This document shows positions 4,552-41,967 of a DNA stretch of 64,000 nucleotides, one piece after another. The stretch is from a virus. How positions within the stretch are numbered: position 1 is the first letter of the stretch; the number at the start of each line of letters is the position of its first letter. The stretch covers positions 32,001-96,000 of the IMG/VR virus record IMGVR_UViG_3300045988_142085. One strand, 5' to 3'. The notes below the pieces were generated by a model. It did not search any database and was not told where the DNA came from. It saw nothing but the letters and a program-made list of their open reading frames with translations. The position numbers and the translations under genes were made by a program.

Positions 4552-4806
4552 TTAAGCTTTATACCGTCTTCTTGATGTTTCCGGTATGTATACTTTTTCC
4601 AGGGCTTTTTCAAGCTTTTGTAATTTTTCCATGTTTTGTTTGATGCATTCATGATCTGTATGTACCTTCAACAATCTTTTAATGCCGCCAATATATGACA
4701 TAATGTCAAGAATTTGTTGCCGAGTTGTATAATACTGATTTTTCAACATAGTTTCTTCCTCAGCAATAAATTGACTTATTTCATAGTTGATATCTCTTGT
4801 TAACAT
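4552..4806 (-). CDS. hypothetical protein
   Basis: 84-aa minus-strand ORF. Confidence 0.4.
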   Translation of the reverse strand: MLTRDINYEISQFIAEEETMLKNQYYTTRQQILDIMSYIGGIKRLLKVHTDHECIKQNMEKLQKLEKALEKVYIPETSRRRYKA

Positions 4807-7114
4807 ACTCGTTATACAATTCCCTTAACTGAATGATATTGCAATTAGGATCGTAATTCATTTCTTTTAAAAACTCAACGAATAACGCATCTTCTTGTTT
4901 AATTTTACCAAAGACTTCAGGAGTCTTTTCAGCGATACGTTTATTAATTTGATCTAATTTGGATAACTTAATTTCTTCTGGCATAGCTTCATCGAATAAA
5001 ATTTCTTTAAAAGATTGGAATGTTCTTCGACGACGTTTCCAAGTATTATAATGATCACATTTAACTTTATACATTTTGCCAGCATTATCGGTTATTACAT
5101 AGCCTTCGATATCTTGCATACCGCCAATAAGCTTCTCGACACCAAGCTCGAATTGATAAGGAGCGTAGACTATTTCTTCTTTAACAAAACTAAAAGTAGT
5201 TTCGTATGAAAGATCAATCGATTTATTTAACTCTTCTTTTAATGCCTCACTTAAATTTCGATCGATATTTCTACCGTTAGCAATATGTAAAACATTCGGT
5301 ACAAAATCTAAAAGATACATACGTTTTCGACCATGATAATTAACGATATGAGGATCGTCTGGATGAATTACTTCGAATATAGCAGAACAATTACTTTCTT
5401 TAAGAATTTTAATAACTTGTTCTTTAACTTCTTCAGAAACGAGATTCCAGACATCTTTAATATATCCAGCATGTTCGCTTTCTGTTGTAGACTTACTAGC
5501 AATAATTAATTTATCTAAACGATGATCCCAACTCAGAATGCCTAAGAAGCCATTTTCTTTCATTGCAAGTCTGACAGGATATTGTAATTCTTTAATTTCG
5601 TCTTCTTTATTATCACGTTCGCCAACATTAAAGAACTTATCGTAACTTCTTGCAAGAACTTCGCCAGTAATAGCGTCGACAAATAAACCTCTAGCTTTAA
5701 TAGTGATATCATTCCAAATAGAATGATAGAACACTTCTTCACTAAAGTTAAGACTTAACATATTGTTAGGTAATTTTTTAACTTTTACATGCCGACTATT
5801 AGCAATAGCATTTACTTCAAAGTCGTCGGTGCTATAATATTCACCTTTAAAGTCTTCGAGAAGCCTTTGATTTGTTTCGATGTAATTTTTATCGTAAACT
5901 TCGTTTCGAATACCGTTATATTCTTCGCCGTCTTTATTTAAAACAAAATATTTTAAGTATCCGCCGAATTCGACTTGGCCTTCCAAAGGAATATTATGCT
6001 CAGTACGTCTTGCACCACGATGACCGAAAATTTGATTAATCTTAGTATCGCTTTTTTCATAACACAACTCATAGAAAGAAGCTACATCGCTTTCGTAAGC
6101 ACCATGACCATTAATATACTGTTCAGCAGCCATAAGATCGACTGGTTGGGTCATTAAACCAGCATGGTTAACACAATATTTTTTATCGCCAAATTTAAAA
6201 TAGAATGCCGGAATCATATCGCGATATAAGATTCTTAACTTTTTAGATAGTTCTTTGTCGTTAATATATTCTTTTTGCCATTCTTTTAAAGTCGTTAATT
6301 TAAAGCAAGTCATACCATTATCTGTTCGTTGATCAGCTTCACCAAAGGCCCAATCAGCCCAATGTGCTTCATGATTACCTTCAAGAAGAATAACATTCTT
6401 TTTATCTTGAAGTTTAAATAATGTGTTAAGCACTTCTAAATTTTCGATACCACGATCAAAATAATCACCGACGAAAATATATAAATTTTTATCGTTATCG
6501 ATACTATATTTTTTGTCGTAAATTAATTTTTCTAATACGGTATTACAACCATGAATATCGCCGACACAAATAATCTGATCGTATACTTCAGATAGATCTT
6601 TATTTAAACCTTCAAAATCACTTCGGAATTTTAATGTATCTAACTTAGTAATACCAGATGGCATTTTGGTATTTATCCAGTTATTGTACATAGTACGAAT
6701 AACAGTTTCAGGAACATGATCGATTAATGGTCGTGTTTCATTTCTTTGAAGATATACTTCTAAATCTTGACGCTCTGGTTCCCAGTAGAATAATCGATAT
6801 TTATAGCGTTTAGCTAATTCTTTATACCGATTAATTTGTTTTGAATGCCATTTTTGAGAACTACAATGAGTGGCATCGATAATGGTCGGAGAACCAGTTT
6901 TCATTCGATTAACGAGCATTCTATCCATAAGTTCGAAGACTAAGGCATTATCTTTTTGACTAACGCCGACTTCGCCAGCAATGCTTAATTCTGGAGCTCT
7001 TAACATTAATCGAATAATATCAGGAGATATGGTATATGCACTAAGCCCAGCATCTTTAATAGCAGTACTCTTTCCAGATCCTGGACAGCCACGCATAATA
7101 ATTAAATCTCTCAT
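4781..7114 (-). CDS. Pnkp-like RNA repair enzyme: P-loop polynucleotide kinase + calcineurin-type phosphoesterase + RNA ligase-like domain
   Basis: N-terminal MRGCPGSGKST. Phosphoesterase motifs VGDIHGC, GDYFDRG, GNHE. C-terminal nucleotidyltransferase-like KENG motif region. Confidence 0.7.
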   Translation of the reverse strand: MRDLIIMRGCPGSGKSTAIKDAGLSAYTISPDIIRLMLRAPELSIAGEVGVSQKDNALVFELMDRMLVNRMKTGSPTIIDATHCSSQKWHSKQINRYKELAKRYKYRLFYWEPERQDLEVYLQRNETRPLIDHVPETVIRTMYNNWINTKMPSGITKLDTLKFRSDFEGLNKDLSEVYDQIICVGDIHGCNTVLEKLIYDKKYSIDNDKNLYIFVGDYFDRGIENLEVLNTLFKLQDKKNVILLEGNHEAHWADWAFGEADQRTDNGMTCFKLTTLKEWQKEYINDKELSKKLRILYRDMIPAFYFKFGDKKYCVNHAGLMTQPVDLMAAEQYINGHGAYESDVASFYELCYEKSDTKINQIFGHRGARRTEHNIPLEGQVEFGGYLKYFVLNKDGEEYNGIRNEVYDKNYIETNQRLLEDFKGEYYSTDDFEVNAIANSRHVKVKKLPNNMLSLNFSEEVFYHSIWNDITIKARGLFVDAITGEVLARSYDKFFNVGERDNKEDEIKELQYPVRLAMKENGFLGILSWDHRLDKLIIASKSTTESEHAGYIKDVWNLVSEEVKEQVIKILKESNCSAIFEVIHPDDPHIVNYHGRKRMYLLDFVPNVLHIANGRNIDRNLSEALKEELNKSIDLSYETTFSFVKEEIVYAPYQFELGVEKLIGGMQDIEGYVITDNAGKMYKVKCDHYNTWKRRRRTFQSFKEILFDEAMPEEIKLSKLDQINKRIAEKTPEVFGKIKQEDALFVEFLKEMNYDPNCNIIQLRELYNEYVNKRYQL

Positions 7115-7959: not shown

Positions 7960-8319
7960 TCACCTTACTTTTTTATATGTAATAATTTGATAATTTATAA
8001 CTGTTTGTAAAACATCTGGATCTGTACTAAGAACTCTGGTTGATTCTATTACTTTTCTATGAAATACGATATACCCTTTATGTTTCATATCCTTAATTGA
8101 AGCATTAACAAAAGAATCTGTTTCTTTATTCATATCATATTTAACAGTAATTTCGGCTGCGTTATTATATTTATTAATAATGTTAGTGTTGCGAGTATCG
8201 ACTAACTTATTTAATGGACTTTTATATACAACAGGATCAGGTGTATCTTGACCACAACCTACAGATATTAAAAGAATTGATATAATTAAAACGTATTTGA
8301 TTATATTTTTTATAAACAT
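7960..8319 (-). CDS. putative lipoprotein
   Basis: Signal peptide with lipobox LISVGC. Confidence 0.55.
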   Translation of the reverse strand: MFIKNIIKYVLIISILLISVGCGQDTPDPVVYKSPLNKLVDTRNTNIINKYNNAAEITVKYDMNKETDSFVNASIKDMKHKGYIVFHRKVIESTRVLSTDPDVLQTVINYQIITYKKVR

Positions 8320-8328
8320 TTTTAGGTC

Positions 8329-8775
8329 TTATTTCTTAATAGCATCAGCGATAATATTAACATAATCATTCAAATTAGTTTTAAATACTTCGTTTGCAGC
8401 ACTAATATTATCTGGTGTAACATAACTAGAAGCAATGATGGCAATCATCATTTCTTTAGAAGGAATAAAGACGATACAAATAAAACTAAAAATAGTCAAT
8501 ATAATTAAAGGGATTTTGAATTTATTCAAAAGATCCATATATTTTTTTGCGTTTAAATATTCTTCTTCTTTAGATTTGCTGTTGTAATTAAGTTCTTTAT
8601 ATCCAACTTCAAGATATGAATTATATGCATTTATTGCGCTCTTAGTTACAATAAAATTGAACAACCAAAGAGCATCAAAAAATAGAATAAAGAAGAAAGC
8701 AAAATGATTAAAATTATCTAAATTGATTAATGCTTGCAACCAAAATATGGTCCATGGACTAATAATAGGTTCCAT
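8329..8775 (-). CDS. membrane protein
   Basis: Predicted transmembrane segments. Confidence 0.5.
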   Translation of the reverse strand: MEPIISPWTIFWLQALINLDNFNHFAFFFILFFDALWLFNFIVTKSAINAYNSYLEVGYKELNYNSKSKEEEYLNAKKYMDLLNKFKIPLIILTIFSFICIVFIPSKEMMIAIIASSYVTPDNISAANEVFKTNLNDYVNIIADAIKK

Positions 8776-9766: not shown

Positions 9767-9786
9767 TTCCCTTATTTAAAAGAAAA

Positions 9787-9812
9787 GCCTCCCAATTAAG
9801 GGAGGCTATAAT
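9787..9812 (-). terminator. rho-independent terminator
   Basis: AGCCTCCC-TTAATT-GGGAGGCT hairpin plus T-run on the minus strand, downstream of the adhesin gene. Confidence 0.55.
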
Positions 9813-9815
9813 TAA

Positions 9816-12209
9816 TTATTTCTTTTCAAGCATAGAGCGAATTTCATTTAATTCTTCTTGCATACGAATATTATTATTTTCTAATTGACGGATTTGTTCT
9901 TCAAGTTCGTGACGAGTTACTTGTTTTTGACCGCCAGTTTTAAAGCTTACACCTAAATTGTATGCTACTTCACCGTCTAATGTAACACCACCATGAATCA
10001 TAGTGTTTTCATTAGGTTGGTATGCAGCGCCTACGGCAACCGCATTAGCATTACGATAATGTCCTACACTAGCTGCGAAGGACCATTTGTCTTTAGGATT
10101 ATAGTCTAAGAATTTAAGGCCCGCTAGTGCTGACGCTTTAGCTACACCTTTATTAACCTGCAAATCTGTATAATGATTAGCACGTTCTAACGCATTGCGG
10201 CCAACAGAATCAATTTTATTATCTAAAACTTTAATATCAGATGTGTTTTTAGCGATATCTTTAGTATTTTTATCAATAAGTTTAGAATTATCGCTAATAG
10301 CACCTTTGATATCTTTATTTTCACTTTCTAAAGTAGTAATGCGACCTTCATGATCACCTACTGTATGTTCAATAGCTCGAATGTCTGCAGTATTAGTAGC
10401 TACATTTTTTTTAACGCCATTAAGAGCATTATTAACTTTATTTAATTGAGATACATTAACAGCATCAGTATCTTTTGTACCAGCTGTAATGTCATGAATT
10501 TGTTGATTGCCTACAGTGATATTATTTGTAGTAAACTCAACACGTTTACCGTTGCTATCTGCAGTCATACCGTTCATAGTATAGCTTGCAGTATCTAAAG
10601 TATCTGTGTTCTCTAAACTAATACCACTAGCATCTACTTTAGCGTTTGTGCTTGTATTATCATTAAAGAAATGAGCTTTTTCTTTATTTACAACACTTCT
10701 AACTGGTTCTGCAGTTGCTCCAAAGTTAGCAGAGTTCATATTGTACAAATCTTTATTGACATTAACGGAGAATTCTTTACCACCGTCGATGTTTGTAGTT
10801 TCAGCAACAGTAGTATTTTTACCATCAGCAACAGTAGTGAAGTTTAAGCTATTGATAACAGCGTTTAACTGACTACCATTAACAGCATCTGTAGAATTAC
10901 CATCAATTCTACCTGCTGCTACATTTGTAATGGTACGTTTGTAGTCTACTACACCGCCTGCTCCGGCTTTATTTGTTGTACCAACAGAAATAGTGCTATC
11001 AGCTGTACCACCTGCAAATTCATATCGTTTACCATTAATATGAATATGATCTGTAGAAACAGCTTCTTCGGTAGTAGAATTAGTGCCTAATGCTACAGAG
11101 TTTTGCACATCGGCTACTGTATTATTACCTAATGCAATAGCATCTTGTGCAGCTGCTTTACCATGAGTACCTACAACAATAGCACCTTGTTTTTCAGTTT
11201 GAGAATTAGAACCAAAAATCAATTGTTCAGGGTCAGTGCCTACAGCTTTATTGTTGTAACCAACAATAGCACTTTGACTAGCATCAACTGTACCATTATT
11301 AGCACCTATTACTGTAGTATCATCACCATTTACAGTCGTATCACGACCAACAACGATAGAAGATACACCTTTAGCATTTACATTCGTACCGATATTTACA
11401 GTTTTAATACCATCTGCATGGATACCGTTGCCAATAGCTACGGAAGATTCGCCATTAGATTTTACCCCGTTACCAATAGCAATAGTGTCTTGAACCTTAG
11501 TTTCAACACCATTACCGATACCAATAGTATTAAAGTCAGTAGCAACTCCATTGCCGATACCAATGCTATTACCAAGGTTATTGACAACGTTATTTCCAAT
11601 ACCAACACTATTATCACTATTAGTAGTAACTGCAGTACCAATACCAACACTATCATTACTATTGGTAGTAACTACAGTACCGATAGCTACATTGTTTTTA
11701 GAATGAGCCTGCGTATATGAACCAAGAGCAAAAGAATCTTTACCCTCTGCTACAGTACCAGCACCAACAGCAAGTGCATTAGCACCATTAGCATATGCTC
11801 CATTGCCGATAGCTACAGTATTATCTGCAGCAGTACGAGCTTGAGAACCAATAGCGAACGTATTGTCTTTTAATGCTTGTGCACTAGAACCAATTGCAAC
11901 AGAGTTACGGCCAGTCGCTTTTGCGTATTCACCGCCAACTAAGCTATTAATGCCTTCTGCTATATTTTCAACACCATAAACTAATGCATTGTTAGCATTT
12001 ACAGTATTTTTATAACCAACTACAAATGAAGATCTACCATCTTCATTAATTGTGTTAGTATAACCATAAGCTTCAGCACCATAATGAGCGGCTGTAGAGT
12101 TTACAGTATTATCTAGACCTGCTGCCATAGCTGTGCTACCAACAATAGATGCCATAATTAAACCAGTTAGTAATGCTTTGTTTTGTAATTTCATAGTAAA
12201 AATCTCCAT
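9816..12209 (-). CDS. YadA-like trimeric autotransporter adhesin (signal peptide, head repeats, two neck/stalk motifs, beta-barrel anchor, C-terminal coiled-coil extension)
   Basis: N-terminal signal peptide ...STAMAAG. Dozens of NSVAIG/SVGIGT head repeats. TITNVAAGRIDGNSTDAVNGSQL motif. YadA anchor ...AVAVGAAYQPNENTMIHGGVTLDGEVAYNLGVSF, then 35 aa of heptad repeats. Confidence 0.8.
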   Translation of the reverse strand: MEIFTMKLQNKALLTGLIMASIVGSTAMAAGLDNTVNSTAAHYGAEAYGYTNTINEDGRSSFVVGYKNTVNANNALVYGVENIAEGINSLVGGEYAKATGRNSVAIGSSAQALKDNTFAIGSQARTAADNTVAIGNGAYANGANALAVGAGTVAEGKDSFALGSYTQAHSKNNVAIGTVVTTNSNDSVGIGTAVTTNSDNSVGIGNNVVNNLGNSIGIGNGVATDFNTIGIGNGVETKVQDTIAIGNGVKSNGESSVAIGNGIHADGIKTVNIGTNVNAKGVSSIVVGRDTTVNGDDTTVIGANNGTVDASQSAIVGYNNKAVGTDPEQLIFGSNSQTEKQGAIVVGTHGKAAAQDAIALGNNTVADVQNSVALGTNSTTEEAVSTDHIHINGKRYEFAGGTADSTISVGTTNKAGAGGVVDYKRTITNVAAGRIDGNSTDAVNGSQLNAVINSLNFTTVADGKNTTVAETTNIDGGKEFSVNVNKDLYNMNSANFGATAEPVRSVVNKEKAHFFNDNTSTNAKVDASGISLENTDTLDTASYTMNGMTADSNGKRVEFTTNNITVGNQQIHDITAGTKDTDAVNVSQLNKVNNALNGVKKNVATNTADIRAIEHTVGDHEGRITTLESENKDIKGAISDNSKLIDKNTKDIAKNTSDIKVLDNKIDSVGRNALERANHYTDLQVNKGVAKASALAGLKFLDYNPKDKWSFAASVGHYRNANAVAVGAAYQPNENTMIHGGVTLDGEVAYNLGVSFKTGGQKQVTRHELEEQIRQLENNNIRMQEELNEIRSMLEKK

Positions 12210-12224
12210 TATTTAAAAAAACAA

Positions 12225-13511
12225 TTATTTATTTTGATTTTTTAAAGCTTCGTTTTCTTGAATTAATGTATTAACGATAGCTTTTAAATCATCAATATCT
12301 TTTGCCATAGAAGCTGGGCTACGATATTCAATATCTTTAGCACCTACTTTATAGCTTACACCAGCATTAATTGCTGTATCTTTACCGTTAATGGATGCAC
12401 CTACAGTAAACATAATATTTGCATTTGGACGATAGGATACACCTAATGCTACAGCAGTATTGCCACGATAATGGCCAACACCAGCCATAGCATCTACTTT
12501 ATGATCTGGATTATAATCTAATGGATGTAATGCTGCCAAAGCAGATACGGATGCAATACCTTTGCGAGCTTCTTTTTGATTAGCATTAATTCTATTATCT
12601 AAAACACTTAAATTGTTTCTAATTTCAGTAACATTGTTATTACTTACGTTAGCTAATTCTTTAATAGCGTTAGTATTTATTTTAATGCCATTAGTATTAT
12701 TTTCTATTTCAGATACAACAGCATGTAATTGACTACCATTAACTGCATCTGTAGATGTGTCAGATACACGACCTGCTGCTACATTTGTAATGGTTTTTTC
12801 TTTATTTACATCACCAATAGACACAGTGCCTACAGGAGTAGTTCCAGCAACTGTATGAGCTTTATTATTAATCATAATAGAAGCTGTATTTACAATGGTA
12901 TCAGTTTTTGCATCGCTACCAAAAGCTACTGAATTGTCTATAGTAGCTTCTGCACCATTACCGATTGCTACTGAATTTTCAGCGATAGCTTTAGCTTTTT
13001 TACCGATAGCATATACATTATCGCTTTCTACTTCTGCATCTTCGCCAAATACAAAAGAATTTTTACCGGTAAGTTTTGCTCTTTCACCGCCGGCAAAAGA
13101 ATTTTCACTTCGGAAATCAATAGCATTGTTATGACCAAATACTAATGTACCACTAGAATGTGTTGCATTTTCATTGCCGCCAGAAATACTATTGTTCGCA
13201 TTAGTAATTGTATTGTGGTCACCAGCTACTATAGAATTTGCAGAATTGTTATTGTTACCTGTACCAAATGTTGCACTATTATGTGCATCGTGTTGGACCA
13301 TATTATTATAGCCACCAACTAAAATATTTCTTACGACGTTCCCGTCATTATGTTGGGTAACGTTGATATCTTCACCATACAAAATGGAATTGTTTGCTTC
13401 AGTAGTTGTGCTATAATGACCAACATTAAAATGTTGATTATTTTCTGCCGCCATAGTTGTACTTGCCAAAGACGCCAATACTAAACCTGTTAATAAAATT
13501 TTGTTATTCAT
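12225..13511 (-). CDS. YadA-like trimeric autotransporter adhesin (shorter paralogue)
   Basis: Signal peptide ...TTMAAEN, head repeats, TITNVAAGRVSDTSTDAVNGSQL, YadA anchor, C-terminal coiled-coil tail. Confidence 0.8.
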   Translation of the reverse strand: MNNKILLTGLVLASLASTTMAAENNQHFNVGHYSTTTEANNSILYGEDINVTQHNDGNVVRNILVGGYNNMVQHDAHNSATFGTGNNNNSANSIVAGDHNTITNANNSISGGNENATHSSGTLVFGHNNAIDFRSENSFAGGERAKLTGKNSFVFGEDAEVESDNVYAIGKKAKAIAENSVAIGNGAEATIDNSVAFGSDAKTDTIVNTASIMINNKAHTVAGTTPVGTVSIGDVNKEKTITNVAAGRVSDTSTDAVNGSQLHAVVSEIENNTNGIKINTNAIKELANVSNNNVTEIRNNLSVLDNRINANQKEARKGIASVSALAALHPLDYNPDHKVDAMAGVGHYRGNTAVALGVSYRPNANIMFTVGASINGKDTAINAGVSYKVGAKDIEYRSPASMAKDIDDLKAIVNTLIQENEALKNQNK

Positions 13512-14428: not shown

Positions 14429-14442
14429 AATCCTCCTTAATT

Positions 14443-14478
14443 AAATAGGCGGCATCCTTAATAGAATACCGCCTATAA
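14443..14478 (-). terminator. rho-independent terminator after HU gene
   Basis: ATAGGCGG...CCGCCTAT hairpin followed by TTTAATTA on the minus strand. Confidence 0.5.
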
Positions 14479-14483
14479 ATTAA

Positions 14484-14762
14484 TTAAGCATTAACTGCGT
14501 CTTTAACAGTTTTGGATGCTTTAAATTTAAATGTTTTAGTTGCTGCAATGTGAATTTTTTCACCAGTTGCAGGATTATGGCCTTCACGAGCTGCGCGTTC
14601 GCCACGTTCGAAAGAGCCAAAACCAGAAATAGATACTTTTTCACCTTTAGCTACTTCATTAACGATAGTAGTAAACACTTCAGATACGATAGCTTCTGCT
14701 GCTACTTTAGTAGCTACTAATTCTTTTTCGACAAGTACTGTTGCAATTTCTTTTTTAGTCAT
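14484..14762 (-). CDS. hup: HU/IHF-family histone-like DNA-binding protein
   Basis: GFGSFERGERAAREGHNPATGEKIHIAATKTFKFKASKTVKDAVN matches the HU signature. Confidence 0.85.
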   Translation of the reverse strand: MTKKEIATVLVEKELVATKVAAEAIVSEVFTTIVNEVAKGEKVSISGFGSFERGERAAREGHNPATGEKIHIAATKTFKFKASKTVKDAVNA

Positions 14763-14810
14763 GTGGAATTTCCTCCATTAAAAACAAAAATATTATACAC
14801 TTAATATATA

Positions 14811-15650
14811 CTAAAAATCGACCATTGTCAATTTTTTGTTTTGTTTTTTAATAAAATTCTTTAATCGAACATTTTCTTGATTAAGGTCTTTTGCTAAAGA
14901 TATTAAAGTATCTACTTTAGACTGAATATCTTCGTTATTTTTAATATATTTATTAACCAACTCGGAGAGCTGAGCGACTTCTTTTTTAAGCCGTTCATTT
15001 TCTAATTGATACATATTAAGTTCGGCTTTAATGTTATTTTTCTTAGAGCCAGACTTAATAATTTGTTGTAAATTATAAGAAATTGCTTGCCTCGATACTC
15101 CGTATTGACTAGCGATATATTCTAAAGTGTGTCCTTTCAAATAAAGCTCGCTGCGCTTCTTTCGAACAGGATCTAAAGAATTTAAGTCGACATATTTCAT
15201 TCGATCTTTTCTTTCTTTAAGCTCTTTCTTAGAACAAATGTCTTGTTCTGAAAGTTTTTGTTTGCATTTTAAACAAACATTGCCTTTACTGTTTGGCCCA
15301 AGCAAAGTACCACACTCTTTACAGTATTTAGATTCTTTTTTATATTTAACAACAAGATTATCTAAATTAGTATTCTTATTGTCGCCATCTTTAAAGCTAA
15401 TAGAATATATCGGCTTTCCTTCGGCTAAAAAAGCTTTAGCTTTTAAATGAGACACAGCAAAACGTTTATTATCTGAACTTCTCATTACGACGTAGCCACG
15501 TCGCGGATCATAAGTTCCTTTATTGACGGTATAACCAAAATGATTGGTAAATTGTACTATTTTATCACGATAAACATAGAAACCATCGACAATGATACAA
15601 TCTCCATTTTCAAGATCGTCATTAACCTGTAATGATGTTAATCTAAACAT
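14811..15650 (-). CDS. free-standing HNH-family homing endonuclease with C-terminal HTH
   Basis: N-terminal IIVDGFYVYRD...HFGYTVNKGTYDP module. CxxC pair. C-terminal sigma-70 region-4-like HTH TLEYIASQYGVSRQAISYNLQ. Confidence 0.6.
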   Translation of the reverse strand: MFRLTSLQVNDDLENGDCIIVDGFYVYRDKIVQFTNHFGYTVNKGTYDPRRGYVVMRSSDNKRFAVSHLKAKAFLAEGKPIYSISFKDGDNKNTNLDNLVVKYKKESKYCKECGTLLGPNSKGNVCLKCKQKLSEQDICSKKELKERKDRMKYVDLNSLDPVRKKRSELYLKGHTLEYIASQYGVSRQAISYNLQQIIKSGSKKNNIKAELNMYQLENERLKKEVAQLSELVNKYIKNNEDIQSKVDTLISLAKDLNQENVRLKNFIKKQNKKLTMVDF

Positions 15651-22549: not shown

Positions 22550-24061
22550 CAAATGTTATTAACCTGTATATTTTTACATACAGCTCTGGAGGTTTTCCTC
22601 ATTTTCATCGATTAGTTAATTCTAATCCAGTTTAGCGTAACTTTTCACCTTAATTAAGATTCATAGGGTTGGGGCCTCTTGGTAGGATTATATCTTTTCA
22701 CCTACTACGCGTTGCGGCTGGCTTAACTTTGTTAAGCCTTCACCTCTGATTAGCATATTGTATATTAATACAACTTAGCCTTCCAGATTTTTTCCCCAAA
22801 GCTAGTCATCATCTTCTGAATCTGTTGATGACGACACGGCTATGCTATTTACAAATTGTCCTTTTTGATTTCTCATCCAAGGATGTTCTTTTTGATGGCA
22901 TTCTGTACATAATGAAAGACCATTTTTAAGATCATTAAATTCTATACTTTTAACAATGTCATCTAAATTATTATTATATTTTTGTACTATGCTATAAAGT
23001 TGTTCGATATGATGAACTATTATATCGGATCGTGATCCACATTTTTGACATGTATAATTGTCTCTTTTTAAACAAGAATTTTTCCAAATTTCATATTCTG
23101 TAGTGCTTCTTAAATAATGAGCAACTTCTGTATATGTTTCTTTTTCTTTATGTAAATATAATTTTTTATGCTCGTTACAACAAAAATGTTTTTTATGATT
23201 TTTAAATTTAGATTCTATTATTTCATATTTTTTATTACAATAATCACAAGAAACTTCAACACGTTTTTTTCGTGCCTCATGTGAACATTTACTAGAACAA
23301 TAGATATGTTTATTTTTTCCTTCAAAAAAATTTTTTAATGCGCCAATTGGCTTATTTATTTTTTCTCCGCAGAAATCACATTTTAATTCTTCTATTGTTT
23401 TTTTATTTTTTTCTTTTATATCTATTGCGTTATGATGCATACATTCTATTGAACAATATGATATATTTTGATTTCTTTTAGTTTGTTTTTTTACATAACT
23501 ATTTGGTAATTTAAATTTTTTTTGACAAAATTTACATGTAAACTCTGTAAAATTACCACGTATATCATTTTCTTTGTTGTAAATTTTGCAACATTCAGAA
23601 GAGCAGAAATAATGCTTTTTATTTTTTAATTTTTGCTGAACCTTAAATTCTTTTCCGCAACAATCACATTTTACATTTAATTGATTGCGCCCCCAATGTT
23701 TATCTTTACACTCTCGGGAACAAAATTTTATAGGTTGATTTTTTTTATTAGCATTTTTAATTTCTCGTTCACTTCTTTGAAACATATTACCACATTCAAG
23801 ACAAATATAATCATGATATACAATATTTTTATGCGCGTATTCATGCATACATTTCTTTGAACAAAATTGTGGTTCAAAATTTGGATTTTTTCTTTTTTGA
23901 AAATCAACTTCACATTTTCTTCTTTTAAAATCAGACATGCAGTTCTTGCATGCATAGTACAACCATATATTTTCTTTATTTTTCATAATTATCTCCTGTT
24001 AATATTCAGTATACATCTATATATTACAGGAGTTTCTTCAATTTGTAAATTTTAAAATTTA
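22550..24061 (-). mobile_element. group I-like intron (family A) carrying an HNH homing-endonuclease ORF, inserted after the Walker B region of the AAA ATPase gene
   Basis: Exon 1 ends GGC GGT directly before a TAA. The 3' 250 nt (22550-22800) is near-identical in architecture to the uvrD intron. HE ORF has its own AGGAG RBS 72 nt into the intron. Confidence 0.7.
22802..23986 (-). CDS. intron-encoded HNH endonuclease with N-terminal array of about 10 CxxC...CxxC zinc-ribbon modules
   Basis: C-terminal CQKCGSRSDIIVHHIEQL...SLCTECHQKEHPW (HNH). Repeated C-x2-C-x(12-20)-[CH]-x(2-4)-[CH] modules upstream. Confidence 0.7.
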   Translation of the reverse strand: MKNKENIWLYYACKNCMSDFKRRKCEVDFQKRKNPNFEPQFCSKKCMHEYAHKNIVYHDYICLECGNMFQRSEREIKNANKKNQPIKFCSRECKDKHWGRNQLNVKCDCCGKEFKVQQKLKNKKHYFCSSECCKIYNKENDIRGNFTEFTCKFCQKKFKLPNSYVKKQTKRNQNISYCSIECMHHNAIDIKEKNKKTIEELKCDFCGEKINKPIGALKNFFEGKNKHIYCSSKCSHEARKKRVEVSCDYCNKKYEIIESKFKNHKKHFCCNEHKKLYLHKEKETYTEVAHYLRSTTEYEIWKNSCLKRDNYTCQKCGSRSDIIVHHIEQLYSIVQKYNNNLDDIVKSIEFNDLKNGLSLCTECHQKEHPWMRNQKGQFVNSIAVSSSTDSEDDD

Positions 24062-31238: not shown

Positions 31239-31990
31239 TATTTTACACCTTTCACGAGTTCGTATTCTTCATACTCAAGTCCGTTAAATAATGGATGTAT
31301 TTTATACATACCATTATACTTTTTCTTGTATAATTCGAAATCTTTATATTTAAGTAAGGTAATTTTGTAATCGACGCCTAAAATATTATTATTTAAATTT
31401 GACATAACTAATGCAAATTTAAGTTTAGTTTTACCTAATGGTTTAGGAACTTTGCCTAGCTTACGCATAGGACCGTCGTCAATTAATTTAACGTTATTAA
31501 ATTCATCGATTAATAATAGGCTATTAATCGACATATCTTCGTTAAATTTATTAACGACTCTATATATTTCTTCTTTCGGCTCGAGCTTAACAAAATTAGC
31601 CTTACCTGATGATTTTTCTGTAATCCGAAGATGTTCGGTTTTAAATCCGATATCGACAATTAGCATACGATTTTGCGTCGTTAAACAGTAAAAGTAATTA
31701 GTATATATCGGGCAAATACTGCAAATAGCATCGCCTTCTTCCAATTTGATTACTTTCTTTGTTCTTGTGATATCGAACATAACGCCAGGAACACATTTAT
31801 AATAGCCGTGTTTTGTTACGATAAGATAGTTAACATCTCTATCGTAATTCAAATAATTATTGTCTTTTGTATAAAAATAATATACACGATCTTCTATCTT
31901 TAAATATGTTTCTGGATTTTGTGCTACACGAAATACTTCGGCACCAGAAAAACGAATAATAGGTTTATTTAGATTTATCATCTGGTTCAC
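31235..31990 (-). CDS. hypothetical protein
   Basis: 251-aa ORF. Confidence 0.5.
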   Translation of the reverse strand: MNQMINLNKPIIRFSGAEVFRVAQNPETYLKIEDRVYYFYTKDNNYLNYDRDVNYLIVTKHGYYKCVPGVMFDITRTKKVIKLEEGDAICSICPIYTNYFYCLTTQNRMLIVDIGFKTEHLRITEKSSGKANFVKLEPKEEIYRVVNKFNEDMSINSLLLIDEFNNVKLIDDGPMRKLGKVPKPLGKTKLKFALVMSNLNNNILGVDYKITLLKYKDFELYKKKYNGMYKIHPLFNGLEYEEYELVKGVKY

Positions 31991-33422
31991 CTATCAATGT
32001 TAAACGCTTATCGTTTTTAAAATATTTTTTAAGAACATTTTGGAGCTCACGTTTAACCTCTTCTAAAATAGAAGTGCTATTTTTTAGAATACCTTTAATT
32101 TCTTTATTACGAGCTTCCAGCTCTGCGATCTTAGTATCGTAATCTCGTTGACTTAACTTAGTAAAGTCATTGATTTTCATACCAAGAATATAATCGGCCG
32201 CTTCTTCGCTTATACTAAGAAGCTTCATTAATTCACTTTTAGGTTCGTCGCTAGTTTTAATTAGTTCTAAAATCTTAGCACTATTAGCGATCGCCAATTT
32301 AATATTGTTGTATCTAAATAATAGTTTATTATTTTTATTTAACTCTAATGTTAATTTATTCTTAACAATATTATGATAATGAATTAATAGCTTCTTAACA
32401 ATAGAAACTAATGGCATATGCTCGATAACTTTATTATTATAAATAATAGTAAAGATACTGTTAAAGCTATCTTCTAATTTAGTCTTTTTAAAAACTTGTT
32501 TAATTAAGTCATCGACAGATTGACCACGTGCTGGTTTAATACTAATATTAAGAACGCCTTTTGCCGAGAAATTTTTAAACTCTCCACAAAGTTTATTTTC
32601 TCTTAATTTTTTTAAACCAGACATGATAACACTAACATTAGTTGTGTATGGTATTGATGTAAATACTAATTCTTTTTTATTTTTAATTGTATATTGGCCA
32701 CGGATAACGAACTTACCTTTGCCATTTTCATATACGGATTCTATATCGTCAGGATTCATAATAATCCCTTCGGTCGGGAAATCTGGTCCTTTGATATACT
32801 TCATTAAGAATTTAGTATTAATATCTTTACCTTTGTTAACCTGATCGATAGTCTTAATTAAGGCCGTAATGACTTCTGTCGCATTATGAGACGGAATCAT
32901 AGAGCTTACACCAGCAGCAATACCGTTAGTATAGTTACACAAAATATTCGGGAAAAATCCTCCTAAATATTTTGGTTCTAATCCTTCGTTGTCATACGTT
33001 GGCATCCATGGTACCGTAGCTTCATTAGTGTCTCCTAGGAGCAGATCTCCAGTCTTACTAAGTCTACTCTCGACGTACCTCATGGCTGCAGGTGGATCAT
33101 TTTCTATACTGCCAAAATTGCCACTACCATCTCCTAATGGATATCTGGCAGAAAATGTCGCCGTCATATTAACGAGAGCGCCATAAGGACCATCTAAGCT
33201 ATGTGGATGATATTGGCCGACAGTATCGCCGATAACTTTAGCAGCTTTTTTAAACGGTTTATTGTTATTTAAACCTAAATTGTTCATCGACAATAATACA
33301 CGTCGTTGAACTGGTTTTAAGCCGTCATTAAGTAACGGGATAGCTCGCTCGTATACAATGTGATTAGCATATTTACTAAAATTTTTAACGAGCAAGTCGC
33401 TTAATTCAATTTCAATTTCCAT
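31965..33422 (-). CDS. type II DNA topoisomerase, A-type (GyrA/ParC/T4 gp52-like) subunit
   Basis: NDGLKPVQRRVLLSMNNLGL...GQYHPHSLDGPYGALVNMTATFSARYPLGDGSGNFGS. Confidence 0.8.
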   Translation of the reverse strand: MEIEIELSDLLVKNFSKYANHIVYERAIPLLNDGLKPVQRRVLLSMNNLGLNNNKPFKKAAKVIGDTVGQYHPHSLDGPYGALVNMTATFSARYPLGDGSGNFGSIENDPPAAMRYVESRLSKTGDLLLGDTNEATVPWMPTYDNEGLEPKYLGGFFPNILCNYTNGIAAGVSSMIPSHNATEVITALIKTIDQVNKGKDINTKFLMKYIKGPDFPTEGIIMNPDDIESVYENGKGKFVIRGQYTIKNKKELVFTSIPYTTNVSVIMSGLKKLRENKLCGEFKNFSAKGVLNISIKPARGQSVDDLIKQVFKKTKLEDSFNSIFTIIYNNKVIEHMPLVSIVKKLLIHYHNIVKNKLTLELNKNNKLLFRYNNIKLAIANSAKILELIKTSDEPKSELMKLLSISEEAADYILGMKINDFTKLSQRDYDTKIAELEARNKEIKGILKNSTSILEEVKRELQNVLKKYFKNDKRLTLIGEPDDKSK

Positions 33423-36315: not shown

Positions 36316-36624
36316 TTAAGAGATATTTGTTTGGACTATATCTTACTTGTTAAAGCAAGTCCTACCGTTTCGATTTTTTAAAAATCTACTCTACTCAGTT
36401 CATATATATACTATATGCTTTTCGATAGTCTCTGAACGCGTTACAGATATCCGTTTTTTTTCCGTTCTGTAATTTCGCTGCGGATAATTTATAGTTTTGA
36501 CAATGTTACTATACCTAAGCCATTACGCTTTGCCATTATTATATCACTATAATAATTTAGTTGCCAATACTAATTTAAACTTCCCCGCAATTAGATAGGT
36601 TTAACGAGAGCGATTCTGTCTTTT
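36316..36624 (-). mobile_element. group I-like intron (family B, ORF-less), gyrB intron 2
   Basis: Lies between ...ELFIVEG and DSAGG. Contains UUGGACUAUAUC ... CGAUAGUCUCUGAACG. Exact junction ambiguous (the simplest omega-G model drops one Gly). Confidence 0.55.
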
Positions 36625-37503
36625 ACCCTCGACAATAAACAGTTCGCATTTTTTAGGGTCGTCACTATGACAATCGCTAAGTTTTTCTACGACAGTAGAT
36701 TTTAATGCTTTTTTCTGTTTACGTGCATTTTCTCTTGCCTTTTTAGCATCGAGTCTAGCTTTAATACTAAGATTAATTTTACTAGTCAATTGCTTAGCAA
36801 AAGTTTTTTTCTTTTTGAGCTCTTCTCCGAAAGACTCGGAAATTAATTCTTTAACTTGATCTCGAATCTCGGGCATCTGTAAATATAGTTTATTTTGACC
36901 TTCGAATTTTGGTTCGATAGTCTTAATATTTACGATAGCTACAAGACCTTCGATCGCATCGTCTTGTGTTAAATCTTTAATATTTAACTCTTTTAATGCT
37001 TGTACTATACCAGCTTTAAACCCATTTAAATGATCGCCGCCGTTTAAAGTATTGATATTATTTACAAACGTTAAAATCGTATTAGAATATAATCCATCAC
37101 AATAATTTAATACGACATGAACAGATGTATTATCTTTTTCTCCTTTAAATTCTAACGCTTTACCGATAGTTTCTTTAGGAGTAATATCTTTTAGATAATC
37201 TAAAAGAGTCGAAGATTTTAAGTTTACCCATTCTTCGCCTAAATTATATTTGATGGTAAGACCTTCGTTAAGATAACTTAACTGCTTAAGTTTCTTTTCG
37301 AGATCTTTAATATTAATAGGATCTGGATAGATTTCAGGATCTAATCGATATTCAATACGGGTACCCGTCTTTTTGGACTTTCGTCCTTTTTTAAGTTCTT
37401 GACTTAAGATACCTTTTTTAAAGCCAATAGACCATTCATATCCATCACGCCATACTGTGGCATTAAAATATTCGGAAACCGCATTAACGCAAGAACTCCC
37501 AAC
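36625..37503 (-). CDS. gyrB: GyrB-like subunit, exon 2 (transducer domain to start of Toprim)
   Basis: VGSSCVNAVSEYFNATVWRDGYEW... equals GyrB [23 protein letters not shown]... Ends CELFIVEG. Confidence 0.7.
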
Positions 37504-37804
37504 CAAAATCTTCAATAAAGAACGCTACTTCTTTATCAGTTCTCTTATGAACTTCTTTATGTTTCCATAAAGTTGAGACTATATCTTCTTAGACTTCCAC
37601 TTCGAGCACCAATAACTTGTGCCCTACTCCCTTACGGGATAGTCGTTGAACTTTATATATATACTTTTTAATATATATCTTAGCTGCTGATTACCCGCCC
37701 ATACGGGCTTTCCAGCAATTCAAAAGTTTTTACAACGGCATTTATTTACCGTTTAAGCCACCAGTAGCAGAGACCTGTCCGCTAAGTGAAACGAATTTTC
37801 CTCC
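37504..37804 (-). mobile_element. group I-like intron (family B, ORF-less), gyrB intron 1
   Basis: Exon 1 ends ...TTG CAT GCT (U). Intron ends ...GAUUUUG (omega G). Exon 2 is GTT GGG AGT, restoring SLHAVGSSCVNAVS, which matches [14 protein letters not shown]. Core UUGCUGGAAAGCCC...CGACUAUCCCGUAAGGGAGUA...GAUAUAGUCUCAAC. Confidence 0.7.
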
Positions 37805-40728: not shown

Positions 40729-41967
40729 CAATTTGTTACCCTATAGGCTTTTTATCCTATAGCTCTTACAGTTACCTGTAAGTTCAGCGTACATTTTTTC
40801 AGTAAAAATATTATACAAACTGAAGTGATCACTCTTGGGAATATTTTATTCTTATCATTAAGGTTCAATTCCTACGCGTTACGGTGTCAAAAGCCTTTTA
40901 AAACTTTTGATTACCTCGGTATTTTCCACATGGGTGCTTCACCGATTTTGATCACTTTAATTACTCTGACTTATTTGTACTTTCATCAGAGAGGGCTCGT
41001 TTTAAAGATAAATATCTTTTCATTTTTCTATCGAGAAAAATAGAAGCATTAGAATATAAATAATCATAAAAAGATAATGTTAAATTTTTCTTATAAAGAA
41101 CTAATTTTTTATATGTGATATAATCATCTATTTTAAATTCAAAATTTGACAGTATTTGATTAATTGATTCTGCTAATAAAGAAGAACCAACAACTATAAC
41201 TGTTTGAATTTTTTTTATATTTTTAGTGATATATCCATTTCCATCAAAATATCCACGGATAAAACTTGAAATAAGATTTTCTTTTATATTTGGCATAAAA
41301 GCATTTTCTGTTTTATTATAAACTACACCTAATTTAAATAAATCTTCTACTAATTCTTTTGACACAATAGATACAACAGATGTTTTTCTATTTTTTCTAT
41401 GCTTAATTTCTAAATTTTTGGCGCCAATATCATTAATAAATTTATTTAAATGGTTATCATCAACAGAGCTTAACTCAATTGATAATCTATTTTTATAAAC
41501 ATTACCATCAGCCATAATAAAACCCAGCCAATATGCTTGTTTTTCTGACTCTATTTCCTTAAAAAAACTTTTATCAAACGTTACATTAGGTCTTTTATAA
41601 GTAAATCTCATATTAACATTTTTCTTTTTTAAGTATGCTGAAAATGATTTAACAGAAATTTTTAATTGTTCTGCTACTTTATACATAGGAATATTTTCTT
41701 CTACATATAGTCTTAATCCTTCAACATATCTAGGATCTTCTATTTCAAAATGGACATTTTTTTTAATTTCTATTCCATTTCGTTTAAAATATCTTCTTAA
41801 AGAACCTACATCTACATTATATTTTTTTGCTAAAGTAGAAGTAGATACTCCTTTATTTTCAGTATATTCTTTTATTGCTTTTTTATATTTATCTTCATTT
41901 TTATATCGTGTCATATTATGACCCTCCTTATGGTCATAATTATATTACACAATATATTTGTCTGTCA
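40729..41967 (-). mobile_element. group I-like intron (family A) with LAGLIDADG homing-endonuclease ORF, clpX intron 2
   Basis: Exon 2 ends ...TCG GGG T. Intron ends CAAAUUG (omega G). 3' part contains ACGCGUAGGAAUUGAACCUUAAUGAUAAGAAUAAAAUAUUCCCAAGAG (family A core). HE ORF has an AAGGAGGG RBS 50 nt into the intron. Confidence 0.65.
40961..41914 (-). CDS. intron-encoded double-motif LAGLIDADG homing endonuclease with N-terminal HTH-like repeats
   Basis: YWLGFIMADGNV and IRGYFDGNGYI motifs. Confidence 0.75.
   Translation of the reverse strand: MTRYKNEDKYKKAIKEYTENKGVSTSTLAKKYNVDVGSLRRYFKRNGIEIKKNVHFEIEDPRYVEGLRLYVEENIPMYKVAEQLKISVKSFSAYLKKKNVNMRFTYKRPNVTFDKSFFKEIESEKQAYWLGFIMADGNVYKNRLSIELSSVDDNHLNKFINDIGAKNLEIKHRKNRKTSVVSIVSKELVEDLFKLGVVYNKTENAFMPNIKENLISSFIRGYFDGNGYITKNIKKIQTVIVVGSSLLAESINQILSNFEFKIDDYITYKKLVLYKKNLTLSFYDYLYSNASIFLDRKMKRYLSLKRALSDESTNKSE

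Follow-up and report, generated by a model that had tools for sequence, protein, structure and literature searches.

Two tandem trimeric autotransporter adhesins of the Negativicutes kind on a replicon that is most likely a jumbo phage

Trimeric autotransporter adhesins (TAAs) of Veillonella bind to surfaces and bring about auto-aggregation as well as co-aggregation with streptococci and Actinomyces (PMC11633186). All of them carry an additional coiled-coil or SLH domain past the YadA anchor, and some TAAs of other Negativicutes, of Synergistetes and of Fusobacteria share this domain (Béchon 2020, PMC7549365). In a survey of 12,394 TAAs, in which more than 10 residues counted as a periplasmic domain, it was found in 99.8% of the Negativicutes, 96% of the Synergistia and 62% of the Fusobacteriia proteins and almost never in Proteobacteria, the only group in which the anchor forms the extreme C-terminus (Dorison 2026, bioRxiv 10.64898/2026.01.22.700529). 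The short form of the domain (<100 aa) is mostly coiled coil, the long form consists of a short coil followed by SLH (Negativicutes) or OmpA (Streptobacillus), and the coil plus SLH type is reported from Negativicutes only (Dorison 2026). In V. parvula, VtaA, VtaE and VtaF without the coiled coil are degraded and lose their function; the domain is dispensable for both trimerization and secretion and shows no apparent peptidoglycan binding (Dorison 2026). Phages are not mentioned in that study. Here we describe two tandem TAA genes of the Negativicutes kind, which we call TAA-S and TAA-L, in a stretch of 64,000 nucleotides from a viral record (IMG/VR IMGVR_UViG_3300045988_142085, positions 32,001 to 96,000). 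This whole stretch is referred to as the window.

TAA-S and TAA-L are complete type Vc, YadA-like TAAs, both encoded on the minus strand with TAA-S upstream of TAA-L (Table 1). The open reading frames (ORFs) lie where an initial annotation, made from the letters alone, had placed two tandem YadA-type adhesins, and YadA_head, YadA_stalk and YadA_anchor (PF05658, PF05662 and PF03895) were detected in both proteins, all above the Pfam gathering thresholds. Sequence searches of the PDB returned UspA1, BpaC, Hia, YadA and other TAAs; the head of TAA-S can be aligned to the head structures of UspA1 and other TAAs, and the anchor of TAA-L to the anchors of YadA (2LME) and CbpF (9GH4). Along each chain a signal peptide, recognized by inspection, precedes head repeats and neck/stalk connectors, a lumen helix and a four-strand anchor. 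The proposed Sec signal peptides were thus recovered by eye, with n-, h- and c-regions and an A-x-A-like site in both proteins and, in TAA-S, a basic n-region, a 13-residue hydrophobic core and a T-M-A cleavage motif. The motif TITNVAAGR..STDAVNGSQL is present as well; it had been taken for the stalk/anchor junction but is the neck/stalk connector (PF05662), and its end is separated from the anchor by ~50 aa in TAA-S and ~236 aa in TAA-L.

AlphaFold2 (AF2) monomer models of both C-termini show a long stalk/lumen helix and four beta-strands, after which a linker of low confidence leads into a C-terminal helix of 27 residues in TAA-S and 31 in TAA-L. The confidence (pLDDT) of these models is 69 for TAA-S and 81 for TAA-L, and the model of TAA-S begins at aa 226. 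Together with the PF03895 matches they bear out an anchor with four beta-strands per monomer in both proteins. When the TAA-S model was compared to the PDB with Foldseek, the best five matches were anchor protomers of Hia, AtaA and YadA, four of them with a root mean square deviation of 2.0-2.7 Å and a target TM of 0.69-0.78, and beyond these anchors no match under E=0.09 was obtained.

The anchor ends at aa 388 of 428 in TAA-S and at aa 756 of 797 in TAA-L, which leaves tails of 40 and 41 residues. The initial annotation had described 35-40 residues of heptad repeats here. Residues in that number do follow the anchor, but they are not heptads throughout: a non-heptad linker of ~8-13 aa comes first, followed by 27-33 aa of heptads, and the periodicity of both tail helices is higher than in 99% or more of shuffles. 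The placement of the tail in the periplasm matches the periplasmic domain described for Negativicutes TAAs (Béchon 2020; Dorison 2026). However, the tail is not the unusual feature it had been taken for, given its near-universal presence (99.8%) in this class (Dorison 2026). With more than 10 residues after the barrel, less than 100 aa and mainly coiled coil, the window tails are textbook short periplasmic domains that follow the rule of the host lineage. The tail itself is not new, as a post-anchor coiled coil has already been described and experimentally tested in that lineage.

The suggested comparison with TAAs of Veillonella and Fusobacterium was the right lead, and it is the Veillonella anchor and tail that come closest. 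In a scan of GTDB species genomes the anchor plus tail was 71% identical to that of a Veillonella metagenome-assembled genome (MAG), 69% to that of Veillonella rogosae JCM 15642 and 54% to that of another Veillonella; almost all other loci among the best 79 came from Negativicutes (Megasphaera, Acidaminococcaceae, Dialister), in a scan whose patterns were derived from this TAA subfamily. Named relatives among protein clusters are Succiniclasticum, Megasphaera and Veillonella ratti, and the middle region of TAA-L is ~42% identical to Veillonella chromosomal TAAs. The anchor plus tail reaches 170 bits against V. rogosae (tblastn), compared to 41-47 bits against the anchor region of Fusobacterium nucleatum CbpF. 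Because of this similarity, the Negativicutes relatives and the coil plus SLH tails in sister phages (see below), the sequences point most probably to Veillonella as the phage host, in line with the diderm host deduced earlier from the outer-membrane adhesins. A Fusobacterium host was also considered, prompted by CbpF as the best PDB anchor match, the low GC content and the likeness of a polynucleotide kinase (PNK)/RNA-ligase protein to Fusobacterium phages (36-38%). It was rejected, as the anchor plus tail is far nearer to Veillonella, the named relatives are Negativicutes and the sister phages have SLH-type tails. Such tails could serve as a marker of the host lineage for this clade of uncultured jumbo phages.

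The cassette is conserved across a clade. The best 120 homologues of each TAA come from metagenomes, and most of them lie on contigs of 203-260 kb, with sizes of ~225-238 and ~251-260 kb recurring across many samples; several homologues in nr are labelled Caudoviricetes sp., and nine relatives lie on IMG/VR viral contigs. Searching 1.84 billion cluster representatives with the anchor plus tail of TAA-S gave 3,650 matches, and nearly all of the best 150 alignments reach into the tail. Each of the 10 related phage loci examined has the cassette, with one to three tandem TAAs, of which the complete ones measure 420-842 aa. The order of S-type and L-type genes is reversed in three of these loci (L001, L005 and L006), yet in L001 the cassette still ends with the terminator hairpin that lies behind TAA-L in the window, and the genes flanking the cassette are rearranged. 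The tail is kept in 239 of 239 anchor-bearing phage homologues (119 of 119 in the TAA-S family). Anchor plus tail is the most conserved part, with a pairwise identity of 0.90-0.92 compared to 0.77-0.87 for the head, and a coil plus SLH follows the anchor in 40 of 120 phage homologues of the TAA-L family. Strong conservation of the tail is consistent with the stabilizing role known from VtaA, VtaE and VtaF.

Many of the cluster matches extend into SLH, several of them on phage-like contigs of 238-310 kb (L090:6001-11196; also P0139, P0396 and related clusters), and some SLH-type TAA clusters have 340-350 members. In a 256-kb sister phage an SLH-type TAA is followed by an 881-aa TAA, beside an NAD-dependent DNA ligase and ThyX. 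Among deposited phage records no genuine relative was found: 11 kb compared by megablast to 50,697 phage records gave no match, and tblastn with TAA-S against GenBank phage records returned only three bacterial contigs filed as phage. We found no literature report of TAAs in jumbo phages or in Veillonella phages, and adhesins are not mentioned in Yahara 2021 or in a 2020 oral-phageome preprint. What is new is therefore that a widespread jumbo-phage clade keeps adhesin genes of the Negativicutes type; the proteins are further members of a known TAA family.

The source contig of the window (ENA ERZ27263288, k119_70580) has 236,270 bp. The window itself has a GC content of 31.5% and ~100 co-directional genes, among them those for a primase, helicases, both topoisomerase II subunits, a PNK/phosphatase/RNA-ligase fusion, thymidylate synthase, a Gam-like protein and HNH endonucleases. 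This replication module is of the virulent-phage type. With the contig size it upholds the phage origin assumed before, and a jumbo phage of ~236 kb is most likely the carrier of the cassette. As the window contains no structural gene, the evidence for a phage comes from the replication module, from contig sizes that recur and from labels given by third parties. Lack of capsid, portal and terminase genes in the window, an insertion sequence (IS)-type transposase and the binning of some homologues into bacterial MAGs would also fit a Veillonella plasmid, a chromosomal island or an assembly chimera, on which the TAAs would be ordinary bacterial genes. We consider this quite improbable, as the GC content of 31.5% differs from the ~0.40 of Veillonella DNA flanking the TAA island in L010 and L011 (see below), the co-directional genes mainly encode phage-family proteins of replication and nucleotide metabolism, and the contig sizes recur, with relatives in IMG/VR and Caudoviricetes labels.

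The surroundings also bear on the possibility that the TAA-like head/stalk modules are virion fibres by which the phage particle binds cells. TAA-S indeed matches phrog_26246 ('tail protein') and phrog_17426 ('adhesin', tail category). However, these PHROG families are true TAAs too, because the matches take in the anchor. An apparent cleavable Sec signal, an outer-membrane beta-barrel anchor and a periplasmic domain are incompatible with virion assembly in the cytoplasm, and the genes have replication genes as neighbours instead of a structural module, so that virion fibres are very hard to reconcile with the data.

The base composition addresses the origin of the cassette. The GC content at third codon positions (GC3) is 0.16-0.17 in the phage TAA genes, 0.23-0.27 in other phage genes and ~0.31 (median) in typical Veillonella TAAs, whereas the overall GC content of the phage TAA genes (0.34-0.36) is above that of the surrounding phage genes. 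The low GC3 may reflect the codon choice of repeat-rich passengers. It had been considered as a sign of recent capture from the host, but a GC3 below that of typical Veillonella TAAs points the other way. The idea that the genes are recently captured host DNA without function for the phage could draw on the nearest bacterial homologues, which are TAAs of the host lineage, and on signs of exchange between phage and host. Hundreds of phage genomes that have diverged to an identity as low as ~50% keep intact ORFs, always with anchor and tail; this and a barrel plus tail pattern as expected under purifying selection contradict the idea, and because a GC3 of 0.16 is unlike the ~0.31 of typical Veillonella TAAs the capture is not recent. 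We give this idea next to no weight.

Two chromosomal adhesin clusters of Veillonella contain low-GC islands. One of ~3.4 kb lies in V. rogosae JCM 15642 (NZ_PPCX01000010; L010:3500-6900), and its counterpart of ~2 kb in the Veillonella MAG (L011:4900-6900). Their GC content is 0.22-0.35 compared to 0.40 in the flanks, and they encode TAAs of 764 aa (L010) and 294 aa (L011), with a GC3 of 0.14-0.15 and 69-71% identity to the anchor plus tail of TAA-S. This composition hints at a transfer of adhesins from phage to host.

From domain architecture, protomer fold, lineage affinity and clade-wide conservation, all determined here, we conclude with a probability of roughly 60% that TAAs of the Negativicutes (Veillonella) kind form an accessory cassette of a Veillonella jumbo phage and are displayed on the infected cell, whose adhesion they alter. 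That the genes are expressed in infected cells, that the proteins reach the surface and change adhesion, and that the phage gains from this, is what we infer. Both genes would be transcribed during infection up to the hairpin terminator at 9786-9807, and the proteins would pass the inner membrane via Sec by means of their short classical signal peptides. Three chains with four strands each would then form a 12-strand barrel, inserted by the host beta-barrel assembly machinery (BAM), and the passenger would be exposed at the surface of the infected cell. A short trimeric coiled coil, formed by the 40-residue C-terminal tails, would remain in the periplasm and, as in VtaA, VtaE and VtaF, guard the adhesin against degradation from its C-terminus without being a peptidoglycan anchor; both the location and this stabilizing role are adopted from the literature. 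Heads that vary between phages could shift the binding partners of the infected cell, which might be kin cells, streptococci, Actinomyces or surfaces, and the altered adhesion may hold the cell in the biofilm beside fresh hosts. Manipulation of aggregation or biofilm, or superinfection control, as the initial annotation had it, is plausible.

Several points weigh against this reading. No virion structural gene (capsid, portal, terminase) lies within the 64-kb window. Protein similarity is the basis of the host assignment, and the absence of Fusobacterium from the GTDB scan is partly by construction, as the patterns came from this TAA subfamily. Sigma-70-like promoter matches are not enriched compared to shuffles, and a candidate intergenic 9-mer, TAAGATATA, falls short of significance and has no copy near the cassette. 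With only 428-792 aa, compared to 2,000-3,100 aa for host adhesins, the phage TAAs are also short for long-range aggregation.

This length also bears on the selective benefit, for which receptor masking or superinfection exclusion is the main rival. The proteins and their export would be the same, and dense short TAAs would mask a receptor or protect the cell against rival phages or host factors. The adhesins of V. parvula have 2,000-3,100 aa and apparently mask shorter ones (PMC11633186); the short phage TAAs would sit beneath them. The cassette is part of an accessory region that rearranges and is surrounded by replication genes, and an arms race would fit the variation in its heads and copy number. 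The Eib TAAs, which are borne on prophages, confer serum resistance and offer a precedent for shielding. On the other hand the head repeats look like ordinary adhesive heads, and we know of no TAA that acts as an exclusion factor. We therefore regard exclusion as an unlikely alternative to the altered adhesion of the infected cell, though one to be taken seriously.

The features of the cassette are compiled in Table 1. An AAGGA ribosome-binding site is located 11 nt ahead of the ATG of TAA-S. For TAA-L the true start is probably Met6, judged from a GGAG motif 9 nt upstream of this second ATG and from an independent gene call on the source contig, which also gives a protein of 792 aa. The strong terminator hairpin starts 9 nt past the stop of TAA-L.

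Table 1. Features of the TAA cassette (window coordinates; residues of TAA-L are numbered along the 797-aa ORF)
Feature	Position	Strand	Residues	Basis and remarks
TAA-S gene	12225..13511	minus	428 aa	complete trimeric autotransporter adhesin; ORF and Pfam head/stalk/anchor
TAA-S signal peptide	13449..13511	minus	1-21	MNNKILLTGLVLASLASTTMA, then cleavage before AE; by inspection
TAA-S passenger head with YadA head repeats	12807..13448	minus	22-235	Pfam PF05658
TAA-S neck/stalk connector (TITNVAAGR..STDAVNGSQL)	12663..12794	minus	240-283	PF05662, E=3.7e-12
TAA-S coiled-coil stalk and barrel-lumen helix	12516..12662	minus	284-332	AF2 helix H34-101
TAA-S YadA-type membrane anchor, four beta-strands	12348..12515	minus	333-388	PF03895, E=1.3e-15; AF2; Foldseek
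TAA-S periplasmic domain, short linker and 27-residue heptad helix	12228..12347	minus	389-428	AF2 helix H174-200; heptad test
TAA-L gene	9816..12209	minus	797-aa ORF	likely protein of 792 aa from ATG at 12194
TAA-L signal peptide	12123..12194	minus	6-29	MKLQNKALLTGLIMASIVGSTAMA, then cleavage before AG; by inspection
TAA-L passenger head repeats	10950..12122	minus	30-420	PF05658, six stretches, E=9e-16
TAA-L first neck/stalk connector	10812..10934	minus	426-466	PF05662
TAA-L middle passenger, second neck (aa ~570-595) and coiled-coil stalk	10107..10811	minus	467-701	second PF05662 stretch; AF2 helix H4-97
TAA-L YadA-type membrane anchor	9942..10106	minus	702-756	PF03895, E=1e-09; AF2 four strands
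TAA-L periplasmic domain, linker and ~31-residue heptad helix	9819..9941	minus	757-797	AF2 helix H167-197; heptad test
Intrinsic terminator hairpin	9786..9807	minus		AGCCTCCC-TTAATT-GGGAGGCT and T-run; terminator scan; closes cassette

Upstream of the cassette lies a 294-aa ORF that was considered as a helper protein and rejected: it has no Pfam or PHROG match, is absent from all related loci and thus unique to this phage. A GGCGG...CCGCC hairpin (14429-14483, minus strand) separates it from a gene for an HU-like protein (14484-14762), and the best sigma-70-like match in the region, TTGACA-17-TATATT (14803-14831, minus strand), is found just upstream of the latter. In L001, L005 and L006 the TAA cassette directly follows the HU gene. 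Downstream (7960-8775, minus strand) are a 119-aa ORF with a lipobox (LISVGC), 70-72% conserved in three related phages and by this motif likely a lipoprotein, and a 148-aa multi-pass membrane protein that occurs in none of the related loci examined. Neither has a family match; both are possibly further envelope-modifying genes.

The fusion of PNK, phosphatase and RNA ligase (777 aa; 4781-7114, minus strand; phrog_8238, E=4e-158) has its nearest cultured relatives in the Fusobacterium phages Fnu1, FNU2, FNU3 and phiKSUM (36-38%) and probably acts in counter-defence by tRNA repair. At 31965-33422, 36601-37515, 22802-23986 and 40961-41914 (minus strand) the topoisomerase II genes look fragmented: a 304-aa ORF covers only positions 156-445 of the 661-position large-subunit profile. 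Several HNH/homing-type endonucleases are encoded nearby, and mobile endonucleases or introns may have split the topoisomerase genes. The IS-type transposase (403 aa; phrog_506, E=2e-39) is encoded at 51780-52991 (minus strand); identical IS copies in Veillonella genomes, if they exist, could link it to the host. No tRNA gene was found in the 64-kb window with ARAGORN.

In dental plaque Veillonella acts as a bridging species, and it relies on TAAs to co-aggregate with streptococci and Actinomyces. Should an abundant clade of jumbo phages add adhesins to infected cells or swap cassettes with the host, phages would directly shape biofilm architecture and adhesin diversity. A bolder proposal, about which we have considerable doubts, is that a widespread, human-associated clade of Veillonella jumbo phages uses fast-evolving adhesins of host type (from one to at least three per genome, with coil or SLH) to rewire the adhesion of infected cells, gluing them to kin or partners so that the burst meets fresh hosts, and in addition shuttles cassettes into Veillonella chromosomes, for which the low-GC TAA island of V. 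rogosae is a hint. If this were true, phages would be direct architects of the co-aggregation networks in dental plaque.

Among known systems, the Eib TAAs of E. coli (EibD, PDB 2XQH) resemble the window TAAs in being short and displayed on the outer membrane. They are carried on lambdoid prophages, as Sandt and Hill reportedly described in 2000. Eib proteins are proteobacterial, belong to temperate prophages and have the anchor at the extreme C-terminus, whereas the window TAAs possess a tail and lie in the replication context of a jumbo replicon; the match to EibD is weak and reflects a generic likeness of the heads (E=9e-4). The PHROG families 10464, 8062, 26246 and 17426 are further precedents for phage-borne TAAs, but their profiles end at the anchor.

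Post-anchor extensions are found in other systems. CbpF of F. nucleatum (PDB 9GH4/9GH5; 489 aa) is a short TAA whose chain runs past the anchor into a heptad tail. Although it is the best PDB anchor match, with a HMMER alignment that spans the tail (TAA-L 690-795 to chain 357-468), it belongs to the Fusobacteriia lineage and its likeness to the phage TAAs is weaker. In OmpM of diderm Firmicutes (PMC10628300) and in TpgA-AtaA (PDB 9VNJ) a periplasmic coil or partner ties the barrel to a peptidoglycan-binding module, an arrangement mirrored by the coil plus SLH TAAs of the sister phages. The window TAAs have no SLH, and coil-only domains of V. parvula apparently do not bind peptidoglycan (Dorison 2026). 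Compared to the V. parvula adhesins VtaA, VtaE and VtaF, the phage TAAs are encoded by a jumbo phage, have far shorter passengers (428-792 compared to 2,000-3,100 aa) and a lower GC3 (0.16 compared to ~0.31 in Veillonella TAAs), and carry a short classical signal peptide where long Negativicutes TAAs have an ESPR. Nevertheless, both share the coiled-coil periplasmic domain, and the anchor plus tail is 40-45% identical to that of V. parvula TAAs.

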